Shown here: in pieces, positions 7,690 through 39,803 of the stretch
Layout: each line of letters opens with the position of its first letter
Position numbering within the stretch: position 1 is the first letter of the stretch
Source: Microcaecilia unicolor
Lineage: Eukaryota
Direction: 5' to 3'
Length of the DNA stretch: 64,000 nt
Assembly: GCF_901765095.1 (NCBI RefSeq)
Contig: NC_044034.1
Coordinates: 62,562,339-62,626,338 of the forward strand
The notes under the pieces: model-generated
Told to the model about the DNA's origin: nothing
Database searches by the model: none
Seen by the model: only the letters and a program-made list of their open reading frames with translations
Translations under genes and position numbers: made by a program

Positions 7690-7835
7690 TTCATCAGGGT
7701 AAACAGCCAAAATGTATACTTCCATTAAGTTACTTCCCACTATTTCAGGACGTGTGGGCAGTTCTGTCCATCGACCAGCAGGTGGAGATAGAAAACTCAG
7801 AACTGAGCTGTCCCATATACACTCAGCCAGCCAGC
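7690..7835 (-). repeat. R1 family copy (minus)
   Basis: Reverse complement of 14800-14900. Confidence 0.5.
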
Positions 7836-9557: not shown

Positions 9558-9745
9558 TAGCCTAGTGGTTAGTGCAGCGGACTTTGATACTAGTGAACTG
9601 GGTTCAATTCCCAGTGCAGCTTCTTGTGACTCTGGGAAAGTCACTTAACCCTCCATTGTCCCAGGTACAATAAGAACCTGTATATACTATGTAAACCGCT
9701 TTGAATGTAGTTGCAAAATCCACAGAAAGGCGGTATATCTGGTAC
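9558..9745 (+). mobile_element. tRNA-derived SINE copy (A-box/B-box GGTTCAATTCCCAG, core CTTGTGACTCTGGGAAAGTCACTTAACCCTCCATTG, LINE-like tail)
   Basis: It has a tRNA-like head with a B-box-like GGTTCAATTCC. The same family recurs at 10098-10285, 54075-54265 (+), 26560-26700 (-) and, diverged, at 49996-50112. Confidence 0.6.
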
Positions 9746-10097
9746 CAGTCCCTCCCTCCCGGTATTCACAGCCACGGCAGTCTCCTCTCTTTGGGATTGC
9801 GGGCGCCTCCTGGGCTTTGCAGCCTTGGCAGTCTCCCCTCTGCAGAGTTGCAGATGCCTTTGGGGCTGCACTACTGCGGCAGTCTCCTTGCTTCTGAGTG
9901 GCGTACCTCTCCTGGTCCTCTCGGCCACAGCAGCCTCCTTTTGGGTGGAGTTGCAGATGCCTAGGGGCATCACAGCTGCGGCAGTCTCCTCTTCGGAATT
10001 GCAGACGCCTATAGGGCTTCATAGCCACAGCAATCTCCTATATGAAGTTGCAGACACCTCCCGGGCGTCACAGCCATGGCAGTCTCCTCCTTTGGAG

Positions 10098-10285
10098 TAG
10101 CCTAGTGGTTAGTGCAGCGGACTTTGATACTAGTGAACTGGGTTCAATTCCCAGTGCAGCTTCTTGTGACTCTGGGAAAGTCACTTAACCCTCCATTGTC
10201 CCAGGTACAATAAGAACCTGTATATACTATGTAAACCGCTTTGAATGTAGTTGCAAAATCCACAGAAAGGCGGTATATCTGGTAC
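10098..10285 (+). mobile_element. tRNA-derived SINE copy (duplicate within the higher-order repeat)
   Basis: Identical to 9558-9745. Confidence 0.6.
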
Positions 10286-15502: not shown

Positions 15503-16339
15503 ATGCCGGCAAAGACCCCGCGTACTCAGAAAGGGCGCGGAACCCCCCACGTGGCTAAGATGGCGTCTGGAAAGGAGAAAGGAGAGGCGACCCAGAGTCA
15601 GGATCTGCCGGTGGTAGCCATACAAGACGCAGCGATACAAGAGATAATGAAGCACATGGCAGCAGTTCTGGATGACAAGCTGTCGGCGCTGCATGTCTTT
15701 ATGGACGAGATGAAAGAAAGCATGGCAGCACAAAGCACCCGCATACAACTGGCAGAGGAACGAATATCACAGCAAGAGGATCTGGTGAATAATGTGAGTT
15801 CTCAAATGTCTGCTCTGGAGAAGAGGTGTAAACTGCTGGAAGAGCGGGTAGAAGATCATGAGAACCGGAGCAGGCGGAATAATATCAGGCTGGTGGGAAT
15901 ACCGGAATCGGTCAAAGATAAAGAGCTCTGGGACTTGGTAGAAGTCTGGCTGCCGAAAGAGCTTGGGATTGAGTCAGAAGGGCAACGTCTCAAAGCAGAG
16001 CGGGTGCATCGGATCGGAGCGCTTAAAGAACATAGCAGTAAGTCATGCCCGGTAATTGCTCGTATTCTCAACTATGCTGAGAAAGCCCAGCTGATGGAAA
16101 AGTATCGCCAGAAGAGAACCCTGACTTATCAGGGGACAGGCATGCTGATGTTTCAAGATTTCTCGCCGCGGGTGTCAGAGCTAAGAAAACGAGTGTCTCC
16201 ATACTGCTCTCAGCTCTACAACAAAGGGATCCGGTTCTCGCTGCAGTACCCAGCAAAGGTGAGAGTGCTGCATGAAGGTCGTGTTCTATTCATGGAGCAG
16301 CCAGAAGAATTGCGCTCATTTCTGGAGCGGTTGCAGTGA
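15503..16339 (+). CDS. L1 ORF1 protein (278 aa), nucleic-acid-binding chaperone with a coiled-coil N-terminal half
   Basis: It lies upstream of ORF2 in the same element. It has a heptad-rich segment (LSALHVFMDEMKESMAAQSTRIQLAEERISQQEDLVNNVSSQMSALEKRCKLLEERVEDHENRSRRNNIRLVGIPE), followed by a C-terminal RRM-like or CTD-like region typical of L1 ORF1p. Confidence 0.8.
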   Translation: MPAKTPRTQKGRGTPHVAKMASGKEKGEATQSQDLPVVAIQDAAIQEIMKHMAAVLDDKLSALHVFMDEMKESMAAQSTRIQLAEERISQQEDLVNNVSSQMSALEKRCKLLEERVEDHENRSRRNNIRLVGIPESVKDKELWDLVEVWLPKELGIESEGQRLKAERVHRIGALKEHSSKSCPVIARILNYAEKAQLMEKYRQKRTLTYQGTGMLMFQDFSPRVSELRKRVSPYCSQLYNKGIRFSLQYPAKVRVLHEGRVLFMEQPEELRSFLERLQ

Positions 16340-17335
16340 CAGAGTGCAATGTTAGAGTGGTTGAAGGGTGCCGGCTTGAAAACACCTTTGATGACACGTG
16401 GAGTGCCGCCGGAGACATTATGCCAGGCAGGCTAGGATTTATTTCTTGTTATTTTTGACGTGCAGGGGATTGCAAGCAGCAGAACCATTAAAGATTGATT
16501 ACTGTAAACAACAAGGAGTGGAGCCCGGGGCATTCTTAAACGGGAGACATTGTTGATTTGGAAGGAGAGGCTGTTTGTGGTTTTTTTTTTTTTTTTTTTT
16601 CCCCAGCTTTATCTGGATGCCAGCTAGAAGACTGAAGACTCAGTGGGGAAGTTGTGAGTTGCCTGGGGACGATTTGTAATTTAAAGAGGCTTGTTGCAGT
16701 GAAGCCTGTGTTCTTTTTTATAGGCTGCACGAGGGAGAGAGAGAGAGAGAAAAAAAAGGAACACAATGGACTATAGTTTGAACAAGTTTGGAGGGGTACT
16801 GTTATTTGTATAATTTGCCTCTGATGGGATCGTTTTACTTTTCTGCTGTCGTATTGGGGGAGTTGAAGGGAAAATGTTGAAACGGGTGGTGGGTGTTTAA
16901 GAAAGGGAAATGCAGCGCTCAGGCAAGCTGAGGATCCTTTTCAGGGGGGGGGAGGGGAGCAGCTTTCTCTTAGGGGAGGGTTGTAACACTGGTTGTTCTA
17001 AAGGGGAGGGTGGGAAGGGACTTGAGGGTGTGGACACAGGTAGGGGGGAAGGGGGATGGGAGGGGAGAAGTGGGAGGAAGGAGCTATTTGACTGGATGGA
17101 GTGAATGGTACACAGAGTGTGGATGTAGCAAACGAAGGGAGGGACAGGGATGGGAAAGAGAGGGAGGGGAGGGGGAGGGGCTGGGGTGGGGGGAAGGCTC
17201 CTGGAGAAATAAGGAATACTGTTACATGGAGGAGATTGGTACCGAGGCAACACCTGGAAAGGGAGGGGGTGGTGAGCTGGGACATCACCCCTTGTTCTCG
17301 GACATAAGGCTGCATATCGCCTTTCGATCTGACAG
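16340..17335 (+). other. L1 inter-ORF spacer (about 1 kb) containing (T)22, (GA)n and GGGAGG-rich low-complexity DNA
   Basis: It lies between the ORF1 stop (16339) and the ORF2 start (17336). ORFs 16897-17384 on both strands are low-complexity artefacts. Confidence 0.6.
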
Positions 17336-20300
17336 ATGGGTAGTTTGAGAATAGGATCATTAAATGTTGATGGTATTCACTCACCGGTTAAGCGGACTAA
17401 AATTTTGGCATACTGTAATAAAATGAAAGTTGATGTGATGTTTTTACAGGAGACTCATCTCTCACAACAAGAACATCGGAAGTTACAAAAAGGGTGGGTT
17501 GGGGAGGTAGTGTCATCTTCCTTTAATAACAGACAAAGGGGGGTGGTTATATTATTCCATAGAAGGCACCATGTTAGCATGCATAAATTAGTACAAGACC
17601 CAGAGGGTCGGTTTGTCATATGGTGGGGAGAGTTTGCAGGGCAGAGGGTGGCCTTATGCTCCATATATGCGCCAAATGTATATTCCCATTCTTTCTTTTC
17701 TGGTCTTTTAGCTCATTTGGTATCAGTTAGTGGGTACAAATTGGTGCTGGGGGGAGATTTTAATATTACTGCAGACCCCTTGATAGATTGCAAGCCAGCA
17801 AAGCCGCGGCCTCCAGCATGGAAAGATAAAGGGATTAACTTTCTAGTACAAGAGCTAGGGCTCCTGGATATCTGGCGGATCTTACATCCAGAATCATATG
17901 ACTACACTTTTTTTTCTCAGGTACATGGGGTATATGCACGGCTCGATTATTTACTAGTTGATGCAACCCTTATGTCGAAAGTGCAGGCGGCAGATATAGT
18001 GGACGGGGCAGTGTCGGATCATTGTTTGATTTGGGCAGACATCCAGTGGCACCAAGGCAGTGCATCAAGGATGTGGCGTATGAATCCAACGTATTTGGAG
18101 CCTGAGTTTCGTAGTTTTTTGTTGAAGATGTGGGACAATTACCTAATGGAAAATGACCCGGAATCAGTAGACCCTATAACTTATTGGGAAGCGGGGAAGG
18201 CCGTGATGCGGGGGCATATTATCGCCTATGGGGCAAAATTAAACAGGGAGCGTAATAGTAGATTAATTGCCTTATCGAGCCATCTGCAACAGTTGAGGGG
18301 GAGGCATGTACGGCAGAGGGAAGACGAGATAAAAAAGGAATATTTGGACACTCGCCGGCAAATTAATGATATTTTGAATGCGCGCGCGGCTCAGGATATC
18401 AGCTTGTATAAATTTAATATGTATAGATGGGGGAATAAGGCGGGGAGATTGATGTCGACCCTGGTAAAAGGCAGAGGGGCCAAAAAAATCATAACGAAGG
18501 TGAGATCTCCTGGAGGGCAGGTAGTGGCCACATCTGAGGGCATCCAGGAAGAGTTTGTCAAATTCTATCAGGCACTGTATAATGCAGGAGAGACAGATCG
18601 GACCCAGCGGGAATTATTTTTTCAGAATCTTCCTTTACCGCAGTTATCGCAGGAGCAGAGAGATCAGTTAAATGCGCCGGTGAAGGGAGAGGAAGTACTT
18701 CAGGCAGTGAAACGCCTTAAGTTGGCTAAGGCCCCCGGTCCGGACGGCCTAGGGCCTGAATTTTATAAGATATTAGGTGCCAACGTAGGACCCCCTTTTC
18801 AAGAATTATGTCATCATCTCTGCACAACTGGGGAGGCGGGCGGTAGACTTACACATGCACACATAGTGGTACTCCCTAAGCCTGGGCGAGATGAGGAATT
18901 GCTGGGTTCCTACAGGCCCATATCGCTCCTTAATCAAGACATAAAGCTTTTTGCCAATATTATGGCAAATAGGTTGGGGAGGGTCTTACCTGGCCTGGTT
19001 CACTCGGATCAGGCGGGATTCGTGCCAGGCCGATATGCATCTTCCAATATTATGAGAGCCTTGACAGTGTTGCAGAAAGGGGGGGGCAAACCCGGAGATG
19101 CGATCATTACAAGTTTGGACGCGGAAAAAGCATTTGATAAGATCTTGTGGGACTATCTATTTTGGGTGTTACCGCAATTTGGTATCATGGGAGCTTTCTT
19201 AGGAGGAATCCGCGCTTTATATAGCCATCCCACAGCTCAGATATTAATAAATGGAGCATTGTCATCTGTCTTTTTCTTAAAGCGGGGCACACGGCAAGGG
19301 TGCCCGCTCTCCCCGATGCTATTTGTGCTGTCCTTAGAACCCTTTGCTATCAAAATTCGACAGACGGACAAAGTTCAGGGAATTAAAATGGGATCCCAAG
19401 AATTTAAAATTAATCTGTTTGCAGATGACATGCTTATATATCTAGATAGAGCATCCGTGACTGTTCCTATTCTTATAGACTTAATTGTCCAATTTGGGTC
19501 TTTCTCTGGTCTATGTATTAATTTTGATAAGTCTGAGGCTTTGCCGGTGTCCTCCCCTTGTGCGTGTAGGCAGCTCCACACGTTTCCCTTAGCTTGGTCG
19601 ACCGGAACTTTAAAATATTTAGGAGTGTATTTGCACGCGGATATGAGAGTGGTATATCGTCGCAATATACAGGACAAGCTAGATGGCATTAAAAAACTTT
19701 GCCACAGATGGAGAGATTTGCCCCTTTCTTTATTGGGGCGTGTAGCGTTAGTAAAAATGGTTATGTTGCCCAAGATTCTATACCCCTTACAGATGATGCC
19801 ATTTTGGATAACACGGAAAGATGAACTATACTATAAGGGGTTTATTGGTACTTTTCTTTGGGCGGGAAAGCGGGCCAGGATAAGTTTTGCTAAATTGACG
19901 CTTGCTAGGAATAAGGGAGGATTAAATCTTCCGGACCTGCGGTTATACAATGTGGCAGCGCTACTTAGGTGGATTTTTGAGCTCCATTCTGGGTCTGCTA
20001 AATATGCCCCAAAAGGTATCTGGCAAGGTGAGGTGCTGCCATATTCAGTGTTTAATAGTCTACAAGTACAGGGAAGCTCGAAAGGAGACCTCCAGTGTTT
20101 GCTTCAGCCTCTGAGAAAGGCCTGGAATTGGTGGCGGGGTGGACTGGGAAAGGCCACAGGACCATCTCCGTTTCTGACAGTAGTAGATAACCCCTCATTT
20201 CCAGCGGGTCAGGGGGCGTCGCGGTTCAAAGTGTGGGCCAAAAAGGGGTGTCGTTATGTGGGACATTTTACGGTGGAGGGACAGGGGATATTCCCCACAT

Positions 20301-21151
20301 TTGAGCAGGCTCAGAACTCTTGGAGCTTGGGGCAGGAAGATTATTTCCCTTTTCTTCAATTGAAGCACTATTGTGCGACCTTGTCTTCTAGGAAAGAGGG
20401 GGGGCCTAGTTTTTCGCGGCTGGATAAGATGTTTTGTCAGATGCCGAACGCTGCAAACAAATTGGCGGTATGGTATTCTATAGGAAGGGAGCAAAAGGAG
20501 GACTTCTTCATTGCTGGCCTGGCAAAATGGTGGGGTGAACAAGTGGGGGAGGAAATCACGGGTAACATGTTGGCAACCTACTTTGCAGCGTCATTTAAAC
20601 TGACAACTAGTGCAAATTTGCAGGAGATGCAGTTTCGGTTGCTACATGGTGCTTTTATAACAAGAGAGAAAGGAAAGCGGATGGGGCTTTGGGAAGATGA
20701 CACTTGCATAAGATGTAAACACAGCAAAGGCACCTTAGTACATACCTTTTTGGAGTGTACTGAGTTGTATGTATTCTGGAAAGGGGTGCTGCAAGTGTTG
20801 GAGCATTTGTTGGCACAGGCTGTAGAGTGGTCCTACCGGATTTTGCTGTTGGGGGATGAGTCTCAGTTGCAAGAACAGGGGTTGCAGCCATCTCAGGTCC
20901 GGTTTGTATGTGTAGCGCTGATGCTGGCACGAAAAACGGTATTAGCACACTGGATTTTGGAAGACCCGCCGGCTATCAACCAGTGGTGGACTAGAATGCT
21001 GCAGATGGCTAGATGGGAAACGGAACGCAGTAAGTCCACTGGAGGGAGAGGTCAGGCATATGGTTCTTTATGGAAGCTGTTTGAGGTACTGTATTCTGCA
21101 AAGAAGGAATCTCCAGGAGCGGGGAGGGGGGTGGGGGTTAGACGGGTATAA
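17336..21151 (+). CDS. L1 ORF2 protein (1271 aa): APE-type endonuclease + reverse transcriptase + Cys-rich C-terminal domain, uninterrupted
   Basis: The N-terminus has the EN motifs (LNVDGIHSPVKR, FLQETH, SDHC). The RT block includes FADDMLIY, and the C-terminal Cys/His-rich domain follows. The reading frame is intact. Confidence 0.9.
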   Translation: MGSLRIGSLNVDGIHSPVKRTKILAYCNKMKVDVMFLQETHLSQQEHRKLQKGWVGEVVSSSFNNRQRGVVILFHRRHHVSMHKLVQDPEGRFVIWWGEFAGQRVALCSIYAPNVYSHSFFSGLLAHLVSVSGYKLVLGGDFNITADPLIDCKPAKPRPPAWKDKGINFLVQELGLLDIWRILHPESYDYTFFSQVHGVYARLDYLLVDATLMSKVQAADIVDGAVSDHCLIWADIQWHQGSASRMWRMNPTYLEPEFRSFLLKMWDNYLMENDPESVDPITYWEAGKAVMRGHIIAYGAKLNRERNSRLIALSSHLQQLRGRHVRQREDEIKKEYLDTRRQINDILNARAAQDISLYKFNMYRWGNKAGRLMSTLVKGRGAKKIITKVRSPGGQVVATSEGIQEEFVKFYQALYNAGETDRTQRELFFQNLPLPQLSQEQRDQLNAPVKGEEVLQAVKRLKLAKAPGPDGLGPEFYKILGANVGPPFQELCHHLCTTGEAGGRLTHAHIVVLPKPGRDEELLGSYRPISLLNQDIKLFANIMANRLGRVLPGLVHSDQAGFVPGRYASSNIMRALTVLQKGGGKPGDAIITSLDAEKAFDKILWDYLFWVLPQFGIMGAFLGGIRALYSHPTAQILINGALSSVFFLKRGTRQGCPLSPMLFVLSLEPFAIKIRQTDKVQGIKMGSQEFKINLFADDMLIYLDRASVTVPILIDLIVQFGSFSGLCINFDKSEALPVSSPCACRQLHTFPLAWSTGTLKYLGVYLHADMRVVYRRNIQDKLDGIKKLCHRWRDLPLSLLGRVALVKMVMLPKILYPLQMMPFWITRKDELYYKGFIGTFLWAGKRARISFAKLTLARNKGGLNLPDLRLYNVAALLRWIFELHSGSAKYAPKGIWQGEVLPYSVFNSLQVQGSSKGDLQCLLQPLRKAWNWWRGGLGKATGPSPFLTVVDNPSFPAGQGASRFKVWAKKGCRYVGHFTVEGQGIFPTFEQAQNSWSLGQEDYFPFLQLKHYCATLSSRKEGGPSFSRLDKMFCQMPNAANKLAVWYSIGREQKEDFFIAGLAKWWGEQVGEEITGNMLATYFAASFKLTTSANLQEMQFRLLHGAFITREKGKRMGLWEDDTCIRCKHSKGTLVHTFLECTELYVFWKGVLQVLEHLLAQAVEWSYRILLLGDESQLQEQGLQPSQVRFVCVALMLARKTVLAHWILEDPPAINQWWTRMLQMARWETERSKSTGGRGQAYGSLWKLFEVLYSAKKESPGAGRGVGVRRV

Positions 21152-23175: not shown

Positions 23176-23940
23176 GTAGGTACAAAGTAAATCTTCTCTT
23201 TCTGAGTAAAGGATCATGGATTTGATATACTGCCTTTGTGGTACAGTCAGTGGTTTACATTTATTATAAAACAATGACAGTGGCTCCCTTAACTGTATAT
23301 GTTCACTGTGGGACCTCAGATAGTATCCACTTATATTATAAATCAGCTCCCACTATCTTCTGTCAGTGTCAGTTCAAACAATCATTAATCAATATATTTC
23401 TCTTGGTGACCTCAGCTGTGCACATTACCAGTTTTACTGAATGGCAATGGGTTCTGCCCACCTTTCTTCATTGGTTCACACTATTAATGCATTTATTTTT
23501 TATCATTATTATTAACATTTAATTTTTGTAGTCAAATGCTCATCTTATATAGATATATCGGACCCAGGGGTTGATGTTACTGTCCGACATGCATGTTTCA
23601 CCCTTGTCAGGGCTGTTTCAAGGACTACCCCCTATGAAAAATACATAAAGATTAACTTCAACGGTATAGTGACAGAGATATAAAGTTAATTTCTCATACC
23701 ACCCCACCGCTATATACCGCTAAACGGTAGAGGGGATGTATATAGCGGTGGGGTGGTATGAGAAATTAACTTTGTATCTCTGTCACTATACTGTTGAAGT
23801 TAATCTTTAAGTATTTTTCGTAGGGGGTAGTCCTTGAAACAGCCCTGACAAGGGCGAAACATGCATGTCGGACAGTAACATCAACCCCTGGGTCCGATAT
23901 ATCTATATAAGATGAGTATTTGACTACAAAAATTAAATGT

Positions 23941-26340
23941 TACCTAGAGCCCTCTTATATAAGAGTAGACGGGAGGGAGGGTTGGGGATGCCCAACCTTC
24001 AATGGTATTATTGTGCAGCACAGTCTAGGGCGGCAGTAGATTGGTTTCGACGAGAGGACCACAAGCTGTGGGTTGACATTGAACAAAATCTGGTGGGTTC
24101 TCGTAAGTTGGGACATCTAATGTGGATCGCAGGTAATGATAGGGGTCGGGTGGATAAATTTCCACCTACAGTACAAGCTACTTTTCACTACTGGGACCTC
24201 CTGTTTCCCCAGCAGCAACCTTTGGTGTCAGGACTAGCCCCGATAGTGGATAACCCTCTGTTTGCCCCGGGTATAGGAAACACTACATTCTGTAAATGGG
24301 CGGAGGCGGGTTTGGACATGTTGGGTCAGTTACATGTGGGGGAGACTATTGTACCCTTCGAGACTTTTGTGACTGACTTCGGTCTTTCACGGGGGGATCG
24401 ATACGCCCACTTGCAACTACAACACTTTTTGAAAGGGAAGGCGTATATGGGATGCCTGAAATGGGATACTCACCCGTTGGAGGAGGTATGTGTAGATCCC
24501 AAGGGCACGAAAGGATTGATTTCCAAACTGTACACTTACTTAGTGAAAGGCTCCAAAACATCCCTATTGCATAGAAAACGGTGGGAACAGGAGCTACAGT
24601 TCTCGTTATTTATTATTTATTTATTTGTTGCATTTGTATCCCACATTTTCCCACCTATTTGCGGGCTCAGTGTGGCTTACAATAAGACTTGAATAATAGA
24701 AATACATTTGTTACAACTAAGTTATGGATTACATTGAACAGTGTTGTGCGAGGCATTCGAATATCGTTGGTAGTATAACAATGGGACAAAACACAGAGAC
24801 ATTAGAAAGAGACAATGGGAAAAAAGGGCATTATTAGGCGCCTAGACATATAGTGTACATAGTTCCGTGGACGAATGTATGGTTGACTGGATAAAGGGAT
24901 GATGGATCAGATGTGGATGTGTATTGCATTGTGGACAGTGAGTAGTCTCTATGTGTATTGGCTCTTTCCATAAGTTTGTTCGAACAGGTGTGTCTTCAGT
25001 AGTTTACGGAAGGAGGCTTGTTCGTTGATCATTCTTAGGTTGCGTGGTAATGTATTCCAAGACTTCGTGCTCTTGTAGGAAAAGGTTGACGCGTGTATCG
25101 TCTTGTATTTCAAGCCCCTGCAGGTTGGGTAATGAAGGTTGAGGTGAGTTCGGGATGATCTTTTGGCGTTTCTAGGTGGTAGGTTTATTAAATCAGACAT
25201 GTACGCTGGGGCTTCACCGTAAATGATCTTATGGACTAGTGTGCAAGTTTTAAAAGTAACGCGGTCCTTGAGTGGAAGCCAATGTAGTTTCTCTCGTAGT
25301 GGTTTTGCCCTTTCATATTTAGGTTTTCCGAAGATGAGCCTGGCTGCTGTGTTCTGGGCTGTTTGAAGTTTCCTTAGTATTTGCTCTTTGCAGCCAGCGT
25401 ATAATGAGTTGCAGTAATCCAAGTGGCTAAGGACGAGGGATTGCACTAGGCTGCGGAAGACGAATCTTGGGAAGAATGGTCTAATTCTTTTCAATTTCCA
25501 CATGCTGAAGAACCCGGAGACGGGTTGGCTGACCTTAGAGAGGAGTCTGTTGCGGGTCTCTCGTGCAGTGGACATGCAGGAGAATGCTGTAAAGGTATTC
25601 TGTAGATGGTACCTGACCCCGGTTAGATTACACCATATGTTTCCGCAGGTTTCAAAGGGCTGCTGGAGGAATTGTGGGGGGGAGGGGACTATGGGTCACA
25701 TATGGTGGCTATGTCCTAAGGCACAGGCCTATTGGAGGGGTGTGCACTCTCGACTTCAAGTATGGCTCGGCAGTTCTGTGCGGTGGCATCCTTTGATCTT
25801 CCTATTAGGACAGAGACCTGAGGGCATTACATCTGATCAGTGTGGATTGGTAAGACAGTCCTTGGTGGCGGCCCGAGTCCACTTGGCCTGAAATTGGAAA
25901 AGACCACAGGTACCCTCAATGAGTGGTTGGCTTACTAAAGTGAGTTACATATGTGAAATGGAGAGACTGACTGCAGCGAAAGGGAGAAATTTGCCAAAAT
26001 GGCAAAAGATATGGACTCCTTTTGAAAGCACACAAAGGGAACTGGATAACAAATGTAATTTTAGCAGTCTTTACTGATAAGGATGGGAAGACGGGGTGGG
26101 GGGAAGGGTGGGGGGGGGAGGGTCAAGGCAGGTGAAGGGAGGGAGGATCTGTTGTATAAAATTAAAAATGATAGAAGTAACATAAGCTACTGTTAAAGCA
26201 TTGTGTTGGTGATGGTGCATTTCTTTACTAGATACCCAATGTTAGATTCATATTGTGTTAAGAAAGTGTAAGGTCTCTCATTGAGTTTGGACTGGTTATC
26301 CTATGCAATGATCAATAAAATCTTCTAAATATTAAAAAAA
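23941..26340 (+). mobile_element. 5'-truncated L1 copy (ORF2 3' half + C-terminal domain + 3'UTR + poly-A at about 26328-26340) with a SINE tail and a CR1-like fragment nested inside it (24590-25575, minus)
   Basis: ORF 23937-24692 is homologous to ORF2 residues about 800-1050 of the intact L1. ORF 25502-25891 is homologous to the ORF2 Cys-rich C-terminus. AATAAA lies upstream of the A-run. The flanking TSD is TTAAATGTTA (23931-23940 and 26341-26350). Confidence 0.7.
24949..25575 (-). pseudogene. CR1/L2-like ORF2 C-terminal fragment (…LDYCNSLYAGC…LQTAQNTAARLI…FRKLLKTHLFEQTYGKSQYT)
   Basis: This is the conserved C-terminal domain of CR1/L2-type LINEs, on the minus strand and nested in the L1 fragment. 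Confidence 0.6.
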
Positions 26341-26559
26341 AAAAATTAAATGTTAATAATGTTAAAAAATAAATGCATTAATAGTGTGAACCAATGAAGA
26401 AAAGTGTGCAGAACCCATTGCCATTCAGTAAAATTGGTAATGTGCAAAGCTGAGGTCACCAAGAGAAATATATTGGTTAATGATTGTTTGAACTGACACT
26501 GACAGAAGATAGTGGGAGCCGATTTATAATATAAGTGGTTACCTTTATTATATGCAGGT

Positions 26560-27959: not shown

Positions 27960-28160
27960 GGCCGGTTGACCTCCAGGTCCCCCACCCCCAAAGCACAAAA
28001 AAACCCTGGTGGTCCAGTGGGACCACTAGCTTCCCCCCACCCCACCGCAGAACAAAAACACCCTGGTGGTCCAGTGGGACTGATAGCTTCCCCCCTCCCT
28101 CCCCCCCACCAAACAAAAATGCCCTGGTGGTCCAGTGGGACCGCTATCTATCAGCCCTCC
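27960..28160. repeat. Tandem repeat, about 58-bp unit x3 (CCCCACCCCCAAAGCACAAAAAAACCCTGGTGGTCCAGTGGGACCACTAGCTTCCCC)
   Basis: Direct inspection. ORFs 27856-28116 and 27966-28193 are artefacts. Confidence 0.6.
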
Positions 28161-31040: not shown

Positions 31041-32413
31041 GTGGCTTATTTTATAAAGACATATCCATGTGTATTTTGGGGCTCTTTTACTAAAGTGAAG
31101 TAAGTTTTTTTTTTTTTTTTTTTTGAGGAGGGGGTTTGCACTTACCACACATTAACAGCCAAATTTAGTGCATGATAAGTGCACAGGCTTTGTCTGTGCA
31201 ATAACTGTTGGGGCGTATCCAACATGCCTTCTGCAGTTTCTGCGTAGACACATTTTCTACTAAGCCTTAACATCAAGTGTGATCAGCAAAGATGCACCTA
31301 ATGCCACCTCTTGCGGAGACATTAAGTTCACCAGTGCTAACTGCACATTTGACAGCTTTGCTACTCACTATGCGCATGCACTCCTACCAGCAGAGGGAGA
31401 CTGAGAACACTAAAACGTCTTATACAAGTAGCCTGTGTAGACCTTCTATTAACCAGTATTTTCTCAGTCTCAGGAAAGGGTAGATGTGTGCAGCCTGTGC
31501 AGTGTACTCAGTCTGGTAGGCCCGTTTGGGGTTTCTAGGTTGGGTTGTAAATGTTAGAGAACCCACACTTGGATCTCTATTACAGGGTGTAAGTCCTAAG
31601 GGGCTTCTTATTCCCTGTGGGGTGTCACACCCGGGTGGCCGGGTCCCTCCCCCTGTGCTCTTCCTCTGGAGGACTGCTTGACCTCGGCTACAGACCTCGT
31701 TCTGTACCCTTAAGACATTTAGGCATCAGCAACGAGGTTTAAAAAAAAAAAATAAAATAAACGTTTTTAAAAGGCGGCTATTTTGGCCGTTCTTGTGGCA
31801 GTCCAGAGATAAAACGTCTTCAAGGGCGTTCTTGCCTTAGGCGGTTTTGCCTATTAGTCTGTCAGAGCACAAAGCAACTGTTTGGTTTTATTGTGTTCGC
31901 GGCCATTATGTCTAAGCCGGCGAGGTGTCGGTTTTGCGCGAAGCGCAGCGTTGAAGTGAAAGGTGATCTTATATTTAATGTTAATTTCCAATCAAATTAC
32001 TTAAAAAAGGAGAAAAAAGACTCGTATGTCCCAGCTTGGCAGCATGTAATACATTCTTCTCCGAGGACAAGCAGGCTGCTTGTTCTCACTGATGGGTGAC
32101 GTCCACGGCAGCCCCTCCAATTGGAAACTTCACTAGCAAAGGCCTTTGCTAGTCCTTGCGCGCCCATGCGTACCGCGCATGCGCGGCCGTCTTCCCGCCC
32201 GAACCGGCTCGTGTTCGTCAGTCTTCTTTTGTCCGCGCTCGGGACGGTCGTGTTTTGCGCCGTTTCGTGCCCCTCAAAGTTGACCTTCGCGTGTCTTCGC
32301 GATTTCGTTTAAAAAAAAAAAAAAAAAAGAGAAGACCTCGGTCTTGTCCCTTCCCGTGTGTCCAGTTTGTTTCCCCGACCTAAGTTTCCTTTCGCTTTCG
32401 GGGTAGGCCTTTT

Positions 32414-32857
32414 TTGGAGCCTCGGTACGGGTTTTTTCTCTCCCTATTTTTGGTGCCCTTAGTCGCCATTACGAATTTTGATTTCGCCGGCGTGATTTTT
32501 CCGCCCATGTCATCGAAGTCTCCCAGCGGCTTCAAGAAGTGCACCCAGTGCGCCCGGGTAATCTCGCTCACTGATAGGCACGCGTCGTGTCTTCAGTGTC
32601 TGGGGGCTGGGCACCGCCCGCAGGCCTGTAGTCTTTGCGCTCTTTTACAGAAGAGGACTCAGGTTGCGAGATTGGCCCAGTGGAACGTGTTGTTCTCGGG
32701 CTCTTCGTCGACAACAGCACCGGAGTCATCGAGTGCATCGATGTCGGCAGCATCAAGACCTTCGACCTCGGCATCGACTGCATCAAGGTATCGACCCTCT
32801 GCATCGTCGGTACCGAAATGTCTGTGTCGGTGGTACCGGGACCTCCACTGTTGCTGA
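32414..32857 (+). CDS. DIRS ORF1 N-terminal Cys-rich (zinc-finger-like) segment
   Basis: CTQCARV...CLQCLGAGHRPQACSLCALL is a Cys/His cluster at the 5' end of the element. Its relation to the following gag-like ORF is unclear. Confidence 0.35.
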   Translation: MEPRYGFFLSLFLVPLVAITNFDFAGVIFPPMSSKSPSGFKKCTQCARVISLTDRHASCLQCLGAGHRPQACSLCALLQKRTQVARLAQWNVLFSGSSSTTAPESSSASMSAASRPSTSASTASRYRPSASSVPKCLCRWYRDLHCC

Positions 32858-33067
32858 TGTCGTCGGACGGTGGTGCTTCGACTGGAGTGCAGGTGAGGGC
32901 TGTCCATTCCCCTGCTGGTGGCGGTGAGCCTTCGGGTGGGTCTCCCCCTACCCTGAGGGCTCCTGCGGTACAGCCCCCCCCGAGACCGACCTTCTTCAGC
33001 CTCGGCCCCGAGGAAGAGACGGCTGGATTCTACGTCCTCCTCGTCGGTACCGGGAAGCTCCAGTGAC

Positions 33068-34759
33068 ATGCTTCGTTTGAAAAAATCAAAGAAGCATCGA
33101 CACCGGTCTCCTTCCCGCATTGGTACCGAGAGCTCTGGGTCGCTGAGGGAGTCGGCACCCAGTAGGCATCGGCACCGGGAGGACCGCTCACCCTCTGTTC
33201 AGGAGGTGTCGATGCACTCCACCTTGGACAGCCCGGAACAGCCTCCACGCCCGGAACAGACTCTGACCTCGACGCCTGCATCGGCTTCCATGTCTTTCTC
33301 CACAGCCGCTCTGTACGAGAGTCTCTGGGCCGTTCTCCCGGAGATCCTGGGAGAGCTGTTGCGCCCTTCCCCTCCGGTACCGGGGGTGCTTGCGCCTCCG
33401 GTACCGTTGAGTGAGGCGCCAGCTAGCCCCTTGCCCGGGGTGAGGTCTCCGACATCAGTGCCGCTTGCGGTACCGACTGCGGCCGCCTCCCAGGAAGGCT
33501 CCCCGACGACGTCGGCGGAGGGAGCTTCGCCGGTGCTGGCGAGGGAGTCTACCTCTCGACGCTCCCACCGTGGCCGTGTTTCCACGGAGTCGAGTCGGGC
33601 ACGGCTTCAGACACAGGTTCATGAACTTGTGTCTGATAACGATGGTGAGGCCTCGTGGGAGGAGGAGGAGGACATCAGATATTTCTCTGACGAGGAGTCT
33701 GATGGCCTTCCTTCTGATCCCACTCCCTCCCCTGAAAGGCACCTTTCTCCTCCCGAGAGTCTGTCTTTTGCGGCCTTTGTCCGGGAGATGTCTACGAACA
33801 TCCCCTTCCTGGTGATTGTGGAGGATGAGCCCAGTGCTGAAATGTTTGAGCTCTTGGACTATCCTTCTCCACCTAAGGAAGCGTCCACAGTACCCATGCA
33901 TCATGTCCTAAAAAAGACATTGCTGGCGAACTGGATCAAGCCTTTAACTAATCCCCACATTCCCAAGAAGATCGAGTCCCAGTACCGGATCCATGGGGAC
34001 CCAGAGCTGATGCGCACTCAGTTGCCTCACGACTCTGGTGTGGTGGATCTGGCCCTAAAGAAGGCTAAGAGTTCTAGGGAGCATGCTTCGGCGCCCCCGG
34101 GCAAGGACTCTAGAACCTTAGACTCCTTTGGGAGGAAGGCCTACCATTCTTCTATGCTCGTGGCCAAAATTCAGTCTTACCAGTTCTACACGAGCATCCA
34201 TATGCGGAACAATGTGCGACAGTTGGCGGGCTTGGTGGACAAGCTCCCTCCTGAGCAAGCCAAGCCATTTCAGGAGGTGGTCAGGCAGCTGAAGGCGTGC
34301 AGAAAATTCCTGGCCAGAGGGGTATATGATACCTTTGATGTTGCGTCCAGGGCCGCTGCTCAAGGTGTGGTGATGTGCAGACTCTCATGGCTGCGTGCCT
34401 CCGACCTGGAGAATAGGATCCAGCAGCGGATTGCGGACTCCCCTTGCCGAGCGGACAACATTTTTGGAGAGAAAGTCGAACAGGTGGTAGAGCAGCTCCA
34501 CCAGCGGGATACCGCTTTCGACAAATTCTCCCGCCGGCAGCCTTCAGCATCTACCTCTTCAGGTAGACGTTTTTATGGGGGAAGGAAGACTGTTCCCTAC
34601 TCTTCTGGTAAGCGTAGGTACAATCCTCCTCTCGACAGCCTGCGGCCCAGGCTAAGCCCCAGCGCGCTCGCTCTCGTCAGCAGCATGCGCCTCAGCAAGG
34701 CCCCGCGGCTCCCCAGCAAAAGCAGGGGACGAGCTTTTGACTGGCTCCACAGAGCATAG
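33068..34759 (+). CDS. DIRS gag-like ORF (563 aa)
   Basis: A long open frame immediately upstream of the RT ORF. It is Ser/Pro/Arg-rich and sits at the position of DIRS ORF1. Confidence 0.55.
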   Translation: MLRLKKSKKHRHRSPSRIGTESSGSLRESAPSRHRHREDRSPSVQEVSMHSTLDSPEQPPRPEQTLTSTPASASMSFSTAALYESLWAVLPEILGELLRPSPPVPGVLAPPVPLSEAPASPLPGVRSPTSVPLAVPTAAASQEGSPTTSAEGASPVLARESTSRRSHRGRVSTESSRARLQTQVHELVSDNDGEASWEEEEDIRYFSDEESDGLPSDPTPSPERHLSPPESLSFAAFVREMSTNIPFLVIVEDEPSAEMFELLDYPSPPKEASTVPMHHVLKKTLLANWIKPLTNPHIPKKIESQYRIHGDPELMRTQLPHDSGVVDLALKKAKSSREHASAPPGKDSRTLDSFGRKAYHSSMLVAKIQSYQFYTSIHMRNNVRQLAGLVDKLPPEQAKPFQEVVRQLKACRKFLARGVYDTFDVASRAAAQGVVMCRLSWLRASDLENRIQQRIADSPCRADNIFGEKVEQVVEQLHQRDTAFDKFSRRQPSASTSSGRRFYGGRKTVPYSSGKRRYNPPLDSLRPRLSPSALALVSSMRLSKAPRLPSKSRGRAFDWLHRA

Positions 34760-36662
34760 CCGACATCAACGTATCAGTGCCGGGCGATCTGCCGGTCGGG
34801 GGGAGGTTGAAAGTTTTTCACCAAAGGTGGCCTCTCATAACCTCCGACCGTTGGGTTCTTCAAATAGTCCGGCAAGGATACACCCTCAATTTGGCCTCGA
34901 AACCTCCAAATTGCCCACCGTGAGCTCAATCCTACAGCTTCCAGCACAAGCAGGTACTTGCAGAGGAACTCTCCGCCCTTCTCAGCGCCAATGCGGTCGA
35001 GCCTGTGCCATCTGGGCAAGAAGGGCTGGGATTCTATTCCAGGTACTTCCTTGTGGAAAAGAAAACGGGGGGATGCGTCCCATCCTAGACCTAAGGGCCC
35101 TGAACAAATATCTGGTCAAGGAAAAGTTCAGGATGCTTTCCCTGGGCACCCTTCTTCCCATGATTAAGGAAAACGACTGGCTATGCTCTCTGGACTTGAA
35201 GGACGCCTACACGCACATCCCAATACTGCTAGCTCACAGGCAGTATCTGCAATTTCAGCTGGGCACACGTCACTTCCAGTACTGTGTGCTACCCTTTGGG
35301 CTCGCCTCTGCGCCCAGAGTGTTCACGAAGTGCCTGGCTGTAGTAGCAGCGGCGCTTCGCAGGCTGGGAGTACACGTGTTCCCCTATCTCGACGATTGGC
35401 TGGTGAAGAACACATCCGAGGCAGGAGCTCTACAGTCCATGCAGATGACTATTCGCCTCCTGGAGCTACTGGGGTTTGTGATAAATTATCCAAAGTCCCA
35501 TATTCTCCCAGTACAGAGACTGGAATTCATAGGAGCTCTGCTGGATTCTCGGATGGCTCGTGCCTGTCTCCCAGAGGCGAGAGCCAACAACTTGTTGTCC
35601 CTCGTCTCTCGGGTGCGAGCGTCCCAGCAGATCACAGCTCGGCAGATGTTGAGATTGTTGGGCCACATGGCCTCCACAGTTCATGTGACTCCAATGGCCC
35701 GCCTTCACATGCGATCTGCTCAATGGACCCTAGCTTCCCAGTGGTTTCAGGCTGCTGGGGATCTAGAAGACGTGATCCACCTGTCCACGAGTTTTCTCAA
35801 ATCCCTGTATTGGTGGACGATTTGGTCCAATTTGACTCTGGGACGTCCTTTCCAAATTCTTCAACCACAAAAAGTGCTGACTACGGATGCGTCTCTCCTG
35901 GGGTGGGGAGCTCATGTCGATGGGCTTCACACCCAGGGAAGCTGGTCCCTCCAGGAACGCGATCTGCAGATCAATCTCCTGGAGTTACGAGCGGTCTGGA
36001 ACGCTCTGAAGGCTTTCAGAGATCGGCTGTCCCACCAAATTATCCAAATTCAGACAGACAACCAGGTTGCCATGTATTACATCAACAAGCAGGGGGGCAC
36101 CGGATCTCGCCCCCTGTGTCAGGAAGCCGTCAGCATGTGGCTCTGGGCTCGTCGTCACGGCATGTTGCTCCAAGCCACATATCTGGTACGCATAAACAAC
36201 AGTCTGGCCGATAGGTTGAGCAGGATCATGCAACCTCACGAGTGGTCACTCAACTCCAGAGTAGTGCGCCAGATCTTCCAGGTGTGGGGCACCCCCTTGG
36301 TAGATCTCTCTGCATCTCGAGCCAACCACAAAGTCCCTCAGTTCTGTTCCAGACTTCAGGCCCACTGCAGACTGGCATCGGATGCCTTCCTCCTGGACTG
36401 GGGGGAAGGTCTGCTGTATGCTTATCCTCCCATACCTCTGGTGGGGAAGACTTTGTTGAAACTCAAGCAAGACCGGGGCACCATGATTCTGATTGCTCCT
36501 TTTTGGCCGCGTCAGATCTGGTTCCCTCTTCTTCTGGAGTTGTCCTCCGAAGAACCGTGGAGATTGGAGTGTTTTCCGACCCTCATCACACAGGATGAGG
36601 GGGCGCTTCTGCATCCCAACCTCCGGTCCCTGGCTCTCATGGCCTGGATGTTGAGAGCATAG
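34737..36662 (+). CDS. DIRS pol ORF: reverse transcriptase (YLDD) + RNase H + C-terminal methyltransferase-like region (641 aa)
   Basis: RT motifs are FQYCVLPFGLASAPRVFTK and VHVFPYLDDWLV. It is followed by an RNase H-like segment (LTTDASLLGWGAH...IQTDNQVAMYYINKQGGT). This is the domain order of the DIRS family. Confidence 0.75.
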   Translation: MTGSTEHSRHQRISAGRSAGRGEVESFSPKVASHNLRPLGSSNSPARIHPQFGLETSKLPTVSSILQLPAQAGTCRGTLRPSQRQCGRACAIWARRAGILFQVLPCGKENGGMRPILDLRALNKYLVKEKFRMLSLGTLLPMIKENDWLCSLDLKDAYTHIPILLAHRQYLQFQLGTRHFQYCVLPFGLASAPRVFTKCLAVVAAALRRLGVHVFPYLDDWLVKNTSEAGALQSMQMTIRLLELLGFVINYPKSHILPVQRLEFIGALLDSRMARACLPEARANNLLSLVSRVRASQQITARQMLRLLGHMASTVHVTPMARLHMRSAQWTLASQWFQAAGDLEDVIHLSTSFLKSLYWWTIWSNLTLGRPFQILQPQKVLTTDASLLGWGAHVDGLHTQGSWSLQERDLQINLLELRAVWNALKAFRDRLSHQIIQIQTDNQVAMYYINKQGGTGSRPLCQEAVSMWLWARRHGMLLQATYLVRINNSLADRLSRIMQPHEWSLNSRVVRQIFQVWGTPLVDLSASRANHKVPQFCSRLQAHCRLASDAFLLDWGEGLLYAYPPIPLVGKTLLKLKQDRGTMILIAPFWPRQIWFPLLLELSSEEPWRLECFPTLITQDEGALLHPNLRSLALMAWMLRA

Positions 36663-36673
36663 ACTTTGCCTCT

Positions 36674-37680
36674 TTGGGTCTGTCAGAGGGTGTCTCCCGT
36701 ATCTTGCTTGCTTCCAGGAAAGATTCCACTAAGAGGAGTTGCTTCTTTTTATGGAGGAGGTTTGCCGTCTGGTGTGACAGCAAGGCCCTAGATCCTCGCT
36801 CTTGTCCTACACAGACCCTGCTTGAATACCTTCTGCACTTGTCTGAGTCTGGTCTCAAGACCAACTCTGTAAGGGTTCACCTTAGTGCAATCAGTGCATG
36901 ACCATTACCGTGTGGAAGGTAAGCCGATCTCAGGACAGCCTTTAGTTGTTCGCTTCATGAGAGGTTTGCTTTTGTCAAAGCCCCCCGTCAAGCCTCCTAC
37001 AGTGTCATGGGATCTCAATGTCGTTCTCACCCAGCTGATGAAACCTCCTTTTGAGCTCACTGAACTCCTGCCATCTGAAGTACTTGACCTGGAAGGTCAT
37101 TTTCTTGGTGGCAGTTACTTCAGCTCGTAGAGTCAGTGAGCTTCAGGCCCTGGTAGCCCAGGCCCCTTACACCAAATTTCATCATAACAGAGTAGTCCTC
37201 CGCACTCACCCTAAGTTTTTGCCGAAGGTAGTGTCGGAGTTCCATCTGAACCAGTCAATTGTCTTGCCAACATTCTTTCCCCGTCCTCATTCCTGCCCTG
37301 CTGAACGTCAGCTGCACACATTGGACTGCAAAAGAGCATTGGCCTTCTATCTGGAGCGGACACAGCCCAACAGACAGTCCGCCCAATTGTTTGTTTCTTT
37401 CGATCCCAACAGGAGGGGAGTGGCTGTGGGGAAACGCACCATATCCAATTGGCTAGCAGATTGCATTTCCTTCACTTACGCCCAGGCTGGGCTGGCTCAC
37501 AATGTCAGAGTAATGGCTGCGTCAGTGGCCCACTTGAAGTCAGCCACTATTGAAGAGATCTGCAAAGCTGCGACGTGGTCATCTGTCCACACATTCACAT
37601 CTCATTACTGCCTGCAGCAGGATACCCGACGCGACAGTCGGTTCGGGCAGTCAGTGCTTCAGAATCTGTTCGGGGTTTAG
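36674..37680 (+). pseudogene. DIRS tyrosine recombinase, split over three reading frames (36674-36901, 36885-37130, 37051-37680)
   Basis: The N-terminal core-binding-like segment and the C-terminal catalytic segment (...WSSVHTFTSHYCL) are in different frames. At least two frameshifts mean this copy is not autonomous. Confidence 0.6.
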
Positions 37681-38194
37681 AATCCAACTCCACCCCCCTA
37701 GTCCCATGTTTATTCTGTTCCAGGCTACACTCTCAGTTAGTTGGATAAATTGTTAGGTCAATCTCAGTTATGTCCTCGCCGTTGCGAGGCCCAATTGACC
37801 TTGTTTGTTGTTTTGAGTGAGCCTGGGGGCTAGGGATACCCCATCAGTGAGAACAAGCAGCCTGCTTGTCCTCGGAGAAAGCGAATGCTACATACCTGTA
37901 GAAGGTATTCTCAGAGGACAGCAGGCTGATTGTTCTTACAAACCCGCCCGCCTCCCCTTTGGAGTTGTGTCTTCCCTTGTCTTTGTCTTGCTACATATGA
38001 GACTGACGAACACGAGCCGGTTCGGGCGGGAACACAGCCGCGCATGCGCGGTACGCATGGGCGCACGCGGACTAGCAAAGGCCTTTGCTAGTGAAGTTTC
38101 CGATTGGAGGGGCTGCCGTGGACGTCACCCATCAGTGAGAACAATCAGCCTGCTGTCCTCGGAGAATACCTTCTACAGGTATGTAGCATTCGCT

Positions 38195-38575
38195 TTTGTG
38201 CCAGCATTCAATGGACTCCAGCCTTATCGGTTTAGAAAAAAAAATCCTCCTTTCTAAAACATTTTATTATGATTTATTTTGGGGTATAGGGCACTTTAAA
38301 AATGTCTTTATCATGATGTATTCAAACATTAAAGAATATATTTAAGAGCACTTAGCTTTTGAGGTTGACACCCCAACCGGGCTCTCCGTTTCACTATTAC
38401 TCAAGCTTCTTCAGGGTACTAAGTACTGTACGTTCTGAATAAACCTAAAAAGATGATATAAAATACATCAATGTTGATAATATATGTGAGAAATTGTGTT
38501 TTTTAGAAAGGAGTTTTTTTCTAGACCGATGATAAGACTGAAGTCCGTTGAATGCTGGCACAAACAATGTTATTA
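38195..38575. repeat. Inverted repeat with about 60-bp arms (GTGCCAGCATTCAATGGACTCCAGCCTTATCGG… / …CCGATGATAAGACTGAAGTCCGTTGAATGCTGGCAC) immediately 3' of the DIRS element
   Basis: Reverse-complement arms at 38195-38260 and 38505-38575, separated by about 250 bp of AT-rich spacer. Confidence 0.5.
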
Positions 38576-39803
38576 CTTGCTGCCCAGCTGGGACATATGA
38601 GATCTTTTTCCTCCTTTTTTTTTTTTAAGTAGTTTGTTTGGAAATGAACATTAAATATAAGGTTTACAATCATCTACACTCTTCAGCTGTATAGATTGTT
38701 CACACGTTGGATATTTCGCTGAAGTATTTGCTTATTTAGAAGTTTGTACACTAATGGCAAAATTGTTGCATGAGAAAGGCACAGCGAAGGTAACAAGGTG
38801 GATGATGTCGATGAAACTACTACTGGACTCAAAAAAAAGTTCACAGCAAGAGTTTATTGATAAAGACTGGACTCGACACGAATCGTGTTTCGGCCGCTCT
38901 GGCCTGCCTCAGGGGTCCCTGTCTATTGATGTTCAGTTAGTCCCTGAAGAGAAAATCTGAAATATTTAGTAAAGCCAAAGTACGCTCTGGTGAAGAAACT
39001 TCACTGTAGCACTTAAGTACGAGCGGCACTCTTCAGTGATTGTCATCATTGCTGCATGTCCATTAATGCAAAAAAAAAAAAAAAAAAGGAAATCAGCCAT
39101 TTTACTGCTGTGGTTAAAATGGCCTTAGCGTGAGGGGAAAACCTGTGTAAGGGTGCACTAAGGACAGTTTCTACTGCAGCTTAGTAAAATGACCCCCTAA
39201 TGAAAGCCTCACAGTCAGCTATTAAAAAATAAGGGCCCTGTTTACTAAGCTGCGCTGTAGGCGCGCTATTTAGCGTGCACTAAAAATTAGCATGCGCTAG
39301 TGATAGAGACACCCATTATATTCCTATGGGTGTGTCTTATCATTAGTGTGAGCAAAGTTAGCGTACCTACAGGGCGGTTTAGTAAACAGGGTACTGAAAG
39401 GAGGGATTTGTCTTGAGAGCGGAGGTTACGGGTAGGAACGTAAGGGGAGATGAGGGTAGAGAGGTAAGGAGGGGCTGCAGATCGAGTGCATTTGTAGATT
39501 AGTAGGAGAAGCTTGAACTGTATTCGGTACCTGATCAGAAGCCAGTGAAGTGACTTGAGGAGAGGGGTGATATGAGTATATCGGTCCAGGCAGAAGATAA
39601 GACGTGCAGCCGAGTTCTGAACGGACTGAAGGGGGATAGATGGCTAAGTGGGAGGACTAATTCCTTTCCTTGACTTTCAGAGCTCCAAATACAGTCTTAC
39701 TCTCCAAGAGTAAGCATAGATAGAGGAGGGAATTGTTTTAATATAGTGCTTTATTATGTGAAAACGAGCTGGCTACATTTATCTTTCTCAGGTAAGCGCC
39801 CAG

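Follow-up and report, generated by a model that had tools for sequence, protein, structure and literature searches.

Dictyostelium DIRS-1 (Cappello 1985) carries inverted terminal repeats (ITRs), an internal complementary region (ICR) encoding the circle junction, a pol with reverse transcriptase (RT), RNase H, and methyltransferase domains, and a tyrosine recombinase (YR). The requirement for its ICR and the action of its proteins in trans have been shown experimentally (PMC7192593, Malicki 2020). Among the DIRS1-like families of Xenopus, XtDIRS3 is 6,196 bp in length and has TTT at both ends, AAA at the junction, an extension of 34 nt, and an ICR of 41–65 nt (PMC3266345, Piednoel et al. 2011); PMC9210276 likewise describes ends of the TTT type. 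In the caecilian Ichthyophis bannanicus, DIRS/DIRS elements account for 26–30% of the genome (PMC8498967).

The window analyzed here, a 64-kb stretch of DNA, almost certainly holds a single DIRS1-like tyrosine-recombinase retrotransposon copy of 6,140 bp (32057–38196), which lies in an older palindromic repeat and splits one of its arms (Table 1). The copy belongs to an already known kind of element; its own structure is complete, and its coding capacity is dead. All of the cis elements are present and nearly intact, and the coding order agrees with that given in a preliminary description of the locus: gag (found here to be LAP2alpha-type), followed by RT/RNase H/methyltransferase and tyrosine recombinase (33068–34759, 34737–36662, and about 36680–37677). 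Searches found no further DIRS copies within the 64-kb window and no tandem repeats within the element.

Table 1. Coordinates of the element and of the host repeat that it interrupts (positions in the window)
Feature	Position	Strand	Basis or detail
Left piece of split host palindromic arm	31968–32056		Alignment to opposite arm
Left inverted terminal repeat	32057–32224	+	blastn inverted match to 38000–38166; CpG o/e 1.05
5' leader, CpG-rich	32225–32506	+	A18 run 32311–32328 read in sequence
Ancestral gag start	32507–32806	+	Cys/His motif (MSSKSPSGFKKCTQC...CLQC...H...CSLC), then Ser-rich spacer
Disrupted gag stretch	32807–32965	+	In-frame TGAs 32855, 32894, 32954
Gag remnant ORF, 563 codons, with LAP2alpha-type domain	33068–34759	+	
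True pol N-terminal part	34741–35072	+	tblastn of intact homologues P0002, P0005, P0006, P0009, P0014
RT (YLDD motif) and RNase H domains, open, in frame	35070–36239	+	
Methyltransferase-like C-terminal pol domain	36240–36662	+	DLSAS, YAYPP, APFWPRQIW motifs
YR gene, three frames	36680–37677	+	36680–36898, 36903–~37055, ~37042–37677; tblastn of P0121
ICR	37840–37939	+	Left half 37840–37879/80, right half 37878–37939
Right inverted terminal repeat including 30-nt extension	38000–38196	+	
Remaining host palindromic repeat	38197–38661		Right arm piece 38197–38265, loop, intact opposite arm 38491–38661

Relation to Described DIRS Elements

Compared by their published descriptions, not by sequence, the Xenopus DIRS1-like families (XtDIRS3; DIRS-37_XT, PMC9210276) resemble this copy in length (about 6.1–6.2 kb), in ITRs of about 120–170 nt with few left/right differences, in an extension on the right of about 30 nt and ICR halves of about 41 and about 62–65 nt, in an AAA junction with T-run ends (TTT in those families, TTT on the right but (C)TT on the left here), and in the content of ORF1 (LAP2alpha gag), ORF2 (RT/RNase H/methyltransferase), and ORF3 (YR); they differ in that this copy is coding-defective. 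DIRS-1 of Dictyostelium has the same ITRs, junction-encoding ICR, and enzymatic domains but differs in the order and overlaps of its ORFs, its YR preceding or overlapping pol, and it has no LAP2alpha-type gag similarity and a host that is only distantly related. The LAP2alpha domain of mammalian TMPO and ZNF451 (PMC4495291) shares homology with the conserved domain at the C terminus of the gag in this copy, but the mammalian sequences are domesticated host exons, whereas the gag here belongs to a whole transposon with ITRs at its limits.

An element of Rhinatrema bivittatum (L001, LR584394.1, 5788–12285) has the same layout and long open ORFs, with 139-nt ITRs, an ICR whose left half matches at 44 of 44 positions and whose right half is 67 nt long, and TTT at its start, and the N-terminal Cys/His motif of gag is common to both. 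In nucleotide sequence, however, the RT/YR regions of the two are only about 66% identical, and in the Rhinatrema copy, which looks largely intact, pol and YR form one open ORF of 947 codons. The gag proteins of caecilian DIRS1-like elements are 28–41% identical to that of this copy, and when the entire window was compared with the Rhinatrema locus (15 kb), no high-identity repeats common to both were found. With protein identity of at most 55% to any database homologue, the copy belongs to a family other than those of Xenopus. Its value lies mainly in annotation, as a clean case of DIRS1-like anatomy with both boundaries placed, from which a family consensus could be started.

Terminal Repeats and Internal Complementary Region

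The left (32057–32224) and right (38000–38166) termini align in inverted orientation with 160 of 168 columns identical (95.2%; blastn E = 9e-72), and the core motifs GCGCATGCGCGGTACGCATGGGCGC and CTAGCAAAGGCCTTTGCTAG are found in both arms. No direct terminal repeats were found, the only direct repeats being by-products of the ITR/ICR palindromes; the inverted termini of the preliminary description are thereby upheld, the alternative of direct repeats having failed on alignment. The ICR, earlier placed at 37838–37935, is complementary to both ends as had been proposed: 37840–37879 pairs with the left end (32057–32096) at 40 of 40 positions (E = 3e-14), and 37878–37939 pairs with the right end (38135–38196) at 60 of 62 (E = 2e-23). 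The two halves overlap at the AAA of the circle junction, and in reverse complement the ICR reads as the right end followed by the left. The 30-nt right extension (38167–38196) has no left-end counterpart; its only other occurrence is in the ICR, where it pairs with 37878–37907.

On the right the element ends in TTT, and AAA stands at the ICR junction, but the left end is CTT where the ICR predicts TTT, and there are four Ts at the right junction. A crossover displaced by one base within the T-run would fit these features, as would a subsequent change of 1 nt, and the position of the crossover is thus fixed only to about 1 nt. The 5' leader (32225–32506) has a CpG o/e of 1.53, as compared with 0.43 for the whole window.

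Insertion Site and Dating

Once 32057–38196 is excised, the continuity of the host repeat arm is restored in a single HSP, in which 31968–32056 joined to 38197 onward aligns over 165 nt (82%, E = 4e-40) with the reverse complement of 38501–38661. The empty site used here is the paralogous intact arm (38491–38661), which is 82% identical and not orthologous; further copies of this palindromic host repeat were sought as a better empty site, and none was found. The two flanks with TT between them read ACATTCTTTGTGCC, and the paralogous arm reads ACATTGTTTGTGCC. No target-site duplication was found, there being no repeated flank at the junctions relative to the paralogous arm, and the comparison shows an insertion at a T-run without such duplication. 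Both junctions correspond to the exact product of a reciprocal exchange between the ICR-encoded junction and the target ACATTC-TT-TGTGCC.

The steps of a possible mechanism can be borrowed from Dictyostelium DIRS-1 and from comparative work. The left repeat would drive transcription of an RNA without the extreme ends, which the RT/RNase H of the element would turn into single-stranded cDNA; the ICR, as the complement of the right end plus the left end, may then act as the template or splint by which the ends are restored and joined into a circle. The YR would then recombine the circle junction, CGC-TTT-CTCC in this copy, with a genomic T-run that matches it and leave no target-site duplication.

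The approximately 95% identity of the termini had been taken to indicate a young insertion, but this step is unsound for elements of this class. Within the outer 40 nt the left and right repeats differ twice, by an A indel and by a C/A change, and because each difference recurs in the corresponding half of the ICR, both were inherited and not acquired after insertion; four of the other six differences are CpG transitions. Since the left/right differences are in part inherited, ITR identity is not a valid clock for this copy. Comparison of the ICR with the termini is a better one than left/right identity, and the 100 matches in 102 positions that it gives suggest a fairly recent insertion, an estimate with only two events behind it. 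In practice, DIRS insertions should not be dated from ITR identity in the manner of LTR elements, and the ICR should be compared with the termini, because it records which of the left/right differences were inherited.

Coding Regions and Their Lesions

The preliminary description combined a complete DIRS structure, which is borne out, with intact gag and RT/RNase H ORFs and a defect confined to the recombinase, which are not. Coding lesions were located by comparison with intact homologues, and by this comparison gag, pol, and recombinase are all defective; the uninterrupted frames of an autonomous copy were not found in 32057–38196. With all three genes disabled, the copy therefore cannot move by itself. 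The proteins of intact relatives could at most copy and insert it in trans, in agreement with the earlier view that a helper would be needed.

The N terminus of gag matches that of the Rhinatrema gag-like protein P0184 (BLASTP E = 3e-10), and residues 2–88 of P0184 map by tblastn to 32513–32806, which shares its frame with the main gag ORF. The ORF from 33068 is an internal remnant of gag, from which three TGAs cut off the N-terminal Cys/His motif; the frame adjoining the disrupted stretch is open from 32635 to 33066. A word-indexed protein search with the full-length conceptual gag gave no matches, presumably because the candidate list was swamped by the Ser/Pro-rich spacer, but an exhaustive search with the conserved domain alone (33761–34540) recovered 214 homologues (best 1e-56), the eight best of which are all caecilian (Rhinatrema, Geotrypetes). 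The gag ORF itself falls below the Pfam cut-off for LAP2alpha (E = 0.0021, 18 bits; cut-off 25), and it is through four homologues (1e-56 to 1e-28) that exceed this cut-off, with 27–40 bits, that ORF1 is recognized as a LAP2alpha-type vertebrate DIRS gag. From 34660 the gag tail aligns with P0181 in another frame, and a frameshift near 34630–34660 probably leaves the last ~40 codons out of frame, as judged from low-complexity matches and one gene-model protein.

It might be argued that the gag TGAs lie inside a retained 186-nt GT-AG intron (32788–32973), removal of which would join the motif to the body in phase and leave gag nearly intact. By eye, the boundaries AAG/GTATCG (32787/32788) and GGTACAG/C (32973/32974) have the correct phase, all three TGAs cluster between them, and the P0184 alignment skips 32807–32965. 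In the Rhinatrema homologue, however, residues 1–684 are encoded by one uninterrupted exon, within which the region matching 32807–32965 is situated, and a spliced intron would be lost from the genomic RNA of a retroelement. The splice sites are, moreover, weak and could have arisen by chance in GC-rich sequence, and a search for support in the literature found none. Such an intron is very improbable, and interruption of gag by the TGAs is the preferred reading.

In pol, the RT and RNase H segment is 46–50% identical to vertebrate homologues. The Pfam check proposed earlier succeeds for the RT (RVT_1, 4e-19); the RNase H scores below its threshold (RT_RNaseH, 5e-4, 20.5 bits; cut-off 24.8), but the family profile matches the Ty3 RT/RNase H structures (3e-39, profile positions 35–467) in an alignment that runs through RNase H and identifies both domains as Ty3/gypsy-related. 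A sequence profile of the C-terminal region gave no match in the PDB, and fold comparison alone revealed the methyltransferase fold. A methyltransferase-like domain downstream of RNase H is absent in VIPER. The first ~95 codons of pol, for which homologues indicate the interval 34789–35082, are in a frame other than that of the long ORF (34737–36662, 641 codons), contain a premature TGA at 34921–34923, and require a frame change in the G-run at 35067–35072 to be joined to the RT.

If recoding at this G-run were normal, or the gag intron at 32788–32973 retained, in an uncatalogued DIRS1-like amphibian (probably caecilian) family, some of the apparent lesions would be an expression strategy; we regard this as very unlikely. 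Autonomy of the copy for gag and pol, with the recombinase alone missing, is extremely unlikely. In its favor are the two long open ORFs, of 563 codons (33068–34759) and 641 codons, and the fact that the domains for RT, RNase H, and methyltransferase are free of stops. However, the 641-codon ORF begins with ~110 codons that are out of frame and unlike any homologue, the conserved pol N terminus lies in another frame with the TGA and the frameshift noted above, and the gag motif conserved with P0184 is cut off. A copy with lesions in all three genes is thus the reading adopted here.

The YR is split over three frames, as had been noted, and its lesions comprise two frameshifts, the stop TGA at 36899, and, immediately ahead of the HxxR box, a deletion of 7 codons. 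The repaired reading keeps all six catalytic residues (R, K, H, R, W, and Y), in the R..K..HxxR..W/H..Y arrangement of a tyrosine recombinase and not that of a DDE integrase. The single pieces and the repaired YR gave nothing in Pfam at E ≤ 0.01, contrary to what the earlier proposal had anticipated, and membership is therefore shown via the family profile, which matches Cre recombinase (1e-10); PF00589 is matched by 12 of the 23 family members. The recombinase, RNase H, and LAP2alpha assignments are accordingly those of homologues and profiles, not of the copy's own Pfam scores.

Element Class, Host, and Genomic Setting

That the element belongs to another class, Ngaro or PAT, Ty3/gypsy LTR element, or Crypton DNA transposon, has a negligible probability, since, although its RT is most similar among solved structures to that of Ty3 and a tyrosine recombinase is common to all of these except Ty3/gypsy, its terminal repeats are inverted, not direct, with a two-part ICR and without the split direct repeats (A1...B1-A2-B2) of Ngaro and PAT, it has a methyltransferase, which Ngaro is without (PMC3266345, PMC9210276), the presence of an RT excludes Crypton, and the direct terminal repeats and the protease and DDE integrase families of a Ty3/gypsy element were not found, the latter in a Pfam scan of the ORFs that yielded no integrase or protease family. 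The DIRS1-like assignment is therefore retained.

The best RT and YR matches are from salamanders, turtles, and coelacanth, and together with the caecilian gag matches they fit the earlier suggestion of an amphibian, fish, or reptile-like host. The accompanying statement that DIRS elements are rare in most amniotes needs qualifying, turtle and lizard proteins being among the matches. The element hints at a cold-blooded vertebrate host, most likely an amphibian and probably one of caecilian type, DIRS elements being abundant in such genomes. Its setting is a repeat-rich stretch, in which an L1 ORF2 is a neighbor of the element.

Organization and Coding Capacity of the Element

The element at 32057-38196 is a textbook DIRS1-like element, structurally complete and dead in all three genes. 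In a self-comparison of the 64-kb window, its left and right inverted terminal repeats (ITRs) match over 32057-32224 and 38000-38166 (160 of 168 columns, 95.2%, E = 9e-72), and the right ITR runs 30 bases further, up to 38196, where the left ITR has no counterpart. The internal complementary region (ICR) opens with 40 bases that are a perfect complement of the element's first 40 (E = 3e-14) and closes with 62 bases that pair with the element's final 62 at 60 of 62 positions (E = 2e-23). Because these halves complement both ends and abut at the AAA at 37878-37880, the reverse complement of the ICR reads as "right end plus left end," a circle junction. A preliminary description had recognized the inverted termini and an ICR complementary to both; self-comparison of 32057-38196 bears out this geometry, and the coordinates proposed were right within a few bases.

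The same description held gag and the RT/RNase H region to be intact and the tyrosine recombinase (YR) to be frameshifted, of which only the latter stands. The YR shares 55% identity with a coelacanth protein and about 50% with proteins of salamanders, turtles, and caecilians. It is split over three reading frames, with a TGA at 36899 and seven codons missing directly before the HxxR motif; the repaired reading retains all of the catalytic residues (R, K, HxxR, W, and Y). A profile of 23 YR sequences matches Cre recombinase (1e-10) in the core-binding and catalytic parts alike, and 12 of its 23 members individually match PF00589. In pol, alignment with intact homologues maps the first ∼95 residues to 34789-35082, in a frame other than that of the long ORF (641 codons), and the first ∼110 codons of this "intact" ORF are therefore meaningless out-of-frame sequence. 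The true N-terminal frame carries a TGA at 34921-34923 and can be joined to the long ORF only through a 1-nt shift in the G-run at 35067-35072.

The first ORF of the element, gag, gives a weak match to LAP2alpha in Pfam, a domain known to have its origin in DIRS1-like gag (PMC4495291); an exhaustive search with 260 conserved gag residues found 214 homologues, several of which pass the Pfam cut-off for LAP2alpha. A Cys/His motif beginning at the ATG at 32507 matches the N terminus of a gag-like protein of Rhinatrema (838 residues, E = 3e-10) and shares its frame with the 563-codon ORF, from which it is separated by TGAs at 32855, 32894, and 32954. Removal of a 186-nt GT...AG interval, 32788-32973, as a putative intron would take out all three stops with the correct phase, but the corresponding region of the Rhinatrema locus is a single exon, and decay is for this reason held to be far more likely. 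The frame seems to change in the gag tail between about 34630 and 34660, a less certain call given the low complexity of the region and the use of a gene model for comparison. The CpG-rich 5′ leader, between the left ITR and the gag start, contains an uninterrupted run of 18 A residues (32311-32328).

The stops and frameshifts mapped in gag, pol, and YR therefore leave all three genes disabled, and the cis elements are almost untouched. Since the family has at most 55% protein identity to anything in the databases searched, the element is counted as an additional member of the known DIRS1-like kind, and its presence is unsurprising.

Insertion Site and Mechanism

The element lies within one arm of an older palindromic, MITE-like repeat (31968-32056 and 38197-38661), of which the window contains no further copies. 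When the flanks are joined without 32057-38196, they match the other arm (38501-38661, in reverse complement) in a single 165-nt HSP (82%, E = 4e-40). With one TT in common, the two flanks read ACATTC-TT-TGTGCC (the opposite arm at the junction being ACATTGTTTGTGCC), and the circle junction encoded by the ICR reads CGCT-TT-CTCC. The observed junctions, ACATTC-TT-CTCC and CGCT-TT-TGTGCC, are the exact outcome of a reciprocal exchange within TT, a crossover that is placed only to about one base because the comparison site is paralogous. Comparison of the flanks with the paralogous arm reveals no target duplication at the two element junctions. In the published model, the circle junction carries a trinucleotide typical of the species, reported to be TTT for Xenopus elements, which recombines with an identical target trinucleotide (PMC3266345, PMC9210276, PMC7192593); as read from the sequence, the junctions are in agreement with the prediction of this model.

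Family knowledge suggests a cycle in which an RNA without the extreme ends would be transcribed, single-stranded cDNA would be made by the RT of the element, the ends would be restored and joined through the ICR, and the circle would be integrated at a T-run by the recombinase. For Dictyostelium, the ICR has been shown to be indispensable and the proteins to work in trans (PMC7192593). A copy of the present type could in principle be mobilized by intact relatives.

Age of the Insertion

The 95% ITR identity had been taken to indicate a young insertion, but this argument is not sound here, as the two ITRs of a DIRS-class element may already differ when it inserts. Within the outer 40 bases, the left and right ends differ by an extra A and a C/A change, and each of these is mirrored in the matching ICR half, which marks both as inherited family features; four of the six remaining differences are CpG transitions. 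Because the model has the ends renewed from the ICR in every cycle, post-insertion change is better measured by the pairing of the ICR with the ends, where 2 of 102 positions mismatch. Under that model, this suggests roughly 1% change per lineage since insertion; with just two events to count, the error is very wide. The CpG observed/expected ratio of the repeats and leader (1.05-1.5, versus 0.43 for the window) also fits a fairly recent copy.

Related Elements

The top eight gag homologues are all caecilian (Rhinatrema bivittatum and Geotrypetes seraphini), and in one caecilian, DIRS elements account for 26-30% of the genome (PMC8498967). An amphibian is the most probable host of the present element, perhaps a caecilian. 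One gag homologue led to a complete DIRS1-like element in R. bivittatum (LR584394.1, locus positions 5788-12285) that has the same layout as the present element but is only about 66% identical to it in nucleotide sequence. Its ITRs are 99% identical to each other, its ICR halves measure 44 nt (left, matching at 44/44) and 67 nt, and it starts with TTT. With a gag of 783 codons and with pol and recombinase together in one ORF of 947 codons, it looks largely intact. The gag of this element has been annotated as a host "gene," XP_029467466.1 ("serine/arginine repetitive matrix protein 1-like"). In another Rhinatrema gene model, XP_029448242.1, a KRAB box (3.8e-22) is combined with a region resembling DIRS gag; this could be a fusion that has been domesticated, or an artefact of annotation.

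Other Repeats in the Window

Coordinates of mapped features (window positions)
Feature	Position	Details
GC-rich region	9215-10575	strong AT skew
540-bp duplication	9215-9514 and 9755-10054	98%
49-bp tandem array	10252-10575	after the 540-bp duplication
539-codon ORF	12667-14286	- strand; strong RT domain (RVT_1, 1e-36); another retroelement
L1-like LINE	15503-21151	ORF1 15503-16339, open, 278 codons; ORF2 17336-21151, open, 1,271 codons
Inverted repeats, 189 nt	23323-26542	96%; enclose about 3.2 kb
Perfect-type hairpin, 205 nt	23513-23942	97%; adjoins left arm of the 189-nt inverted repeats
Tandem repeat	27976-28154	three copies of a 57-61-nt unit containing CCCTGGTGGTCCAGTGGGAC
Host palindromic repeat		arms about 155-165 nt, 82% identity; loop at about 38266-38490
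YR reading frames	36680-36898; 36903-∼37055; ∼37042-37677
ICR	37840-37939	100 nt; between coding region and right ITR

The segment enclosed by the 189-nt inverted repeats may be a DNA transposon; its two ORFs (23937-24692, + strand; 24949-25575, - strand) have no Pfam match. ORF2 of the L1-like LINE contains endonuclease (1e-10) and RT (5e-32) domains and, both ORFs being open, the copy may be young or active.
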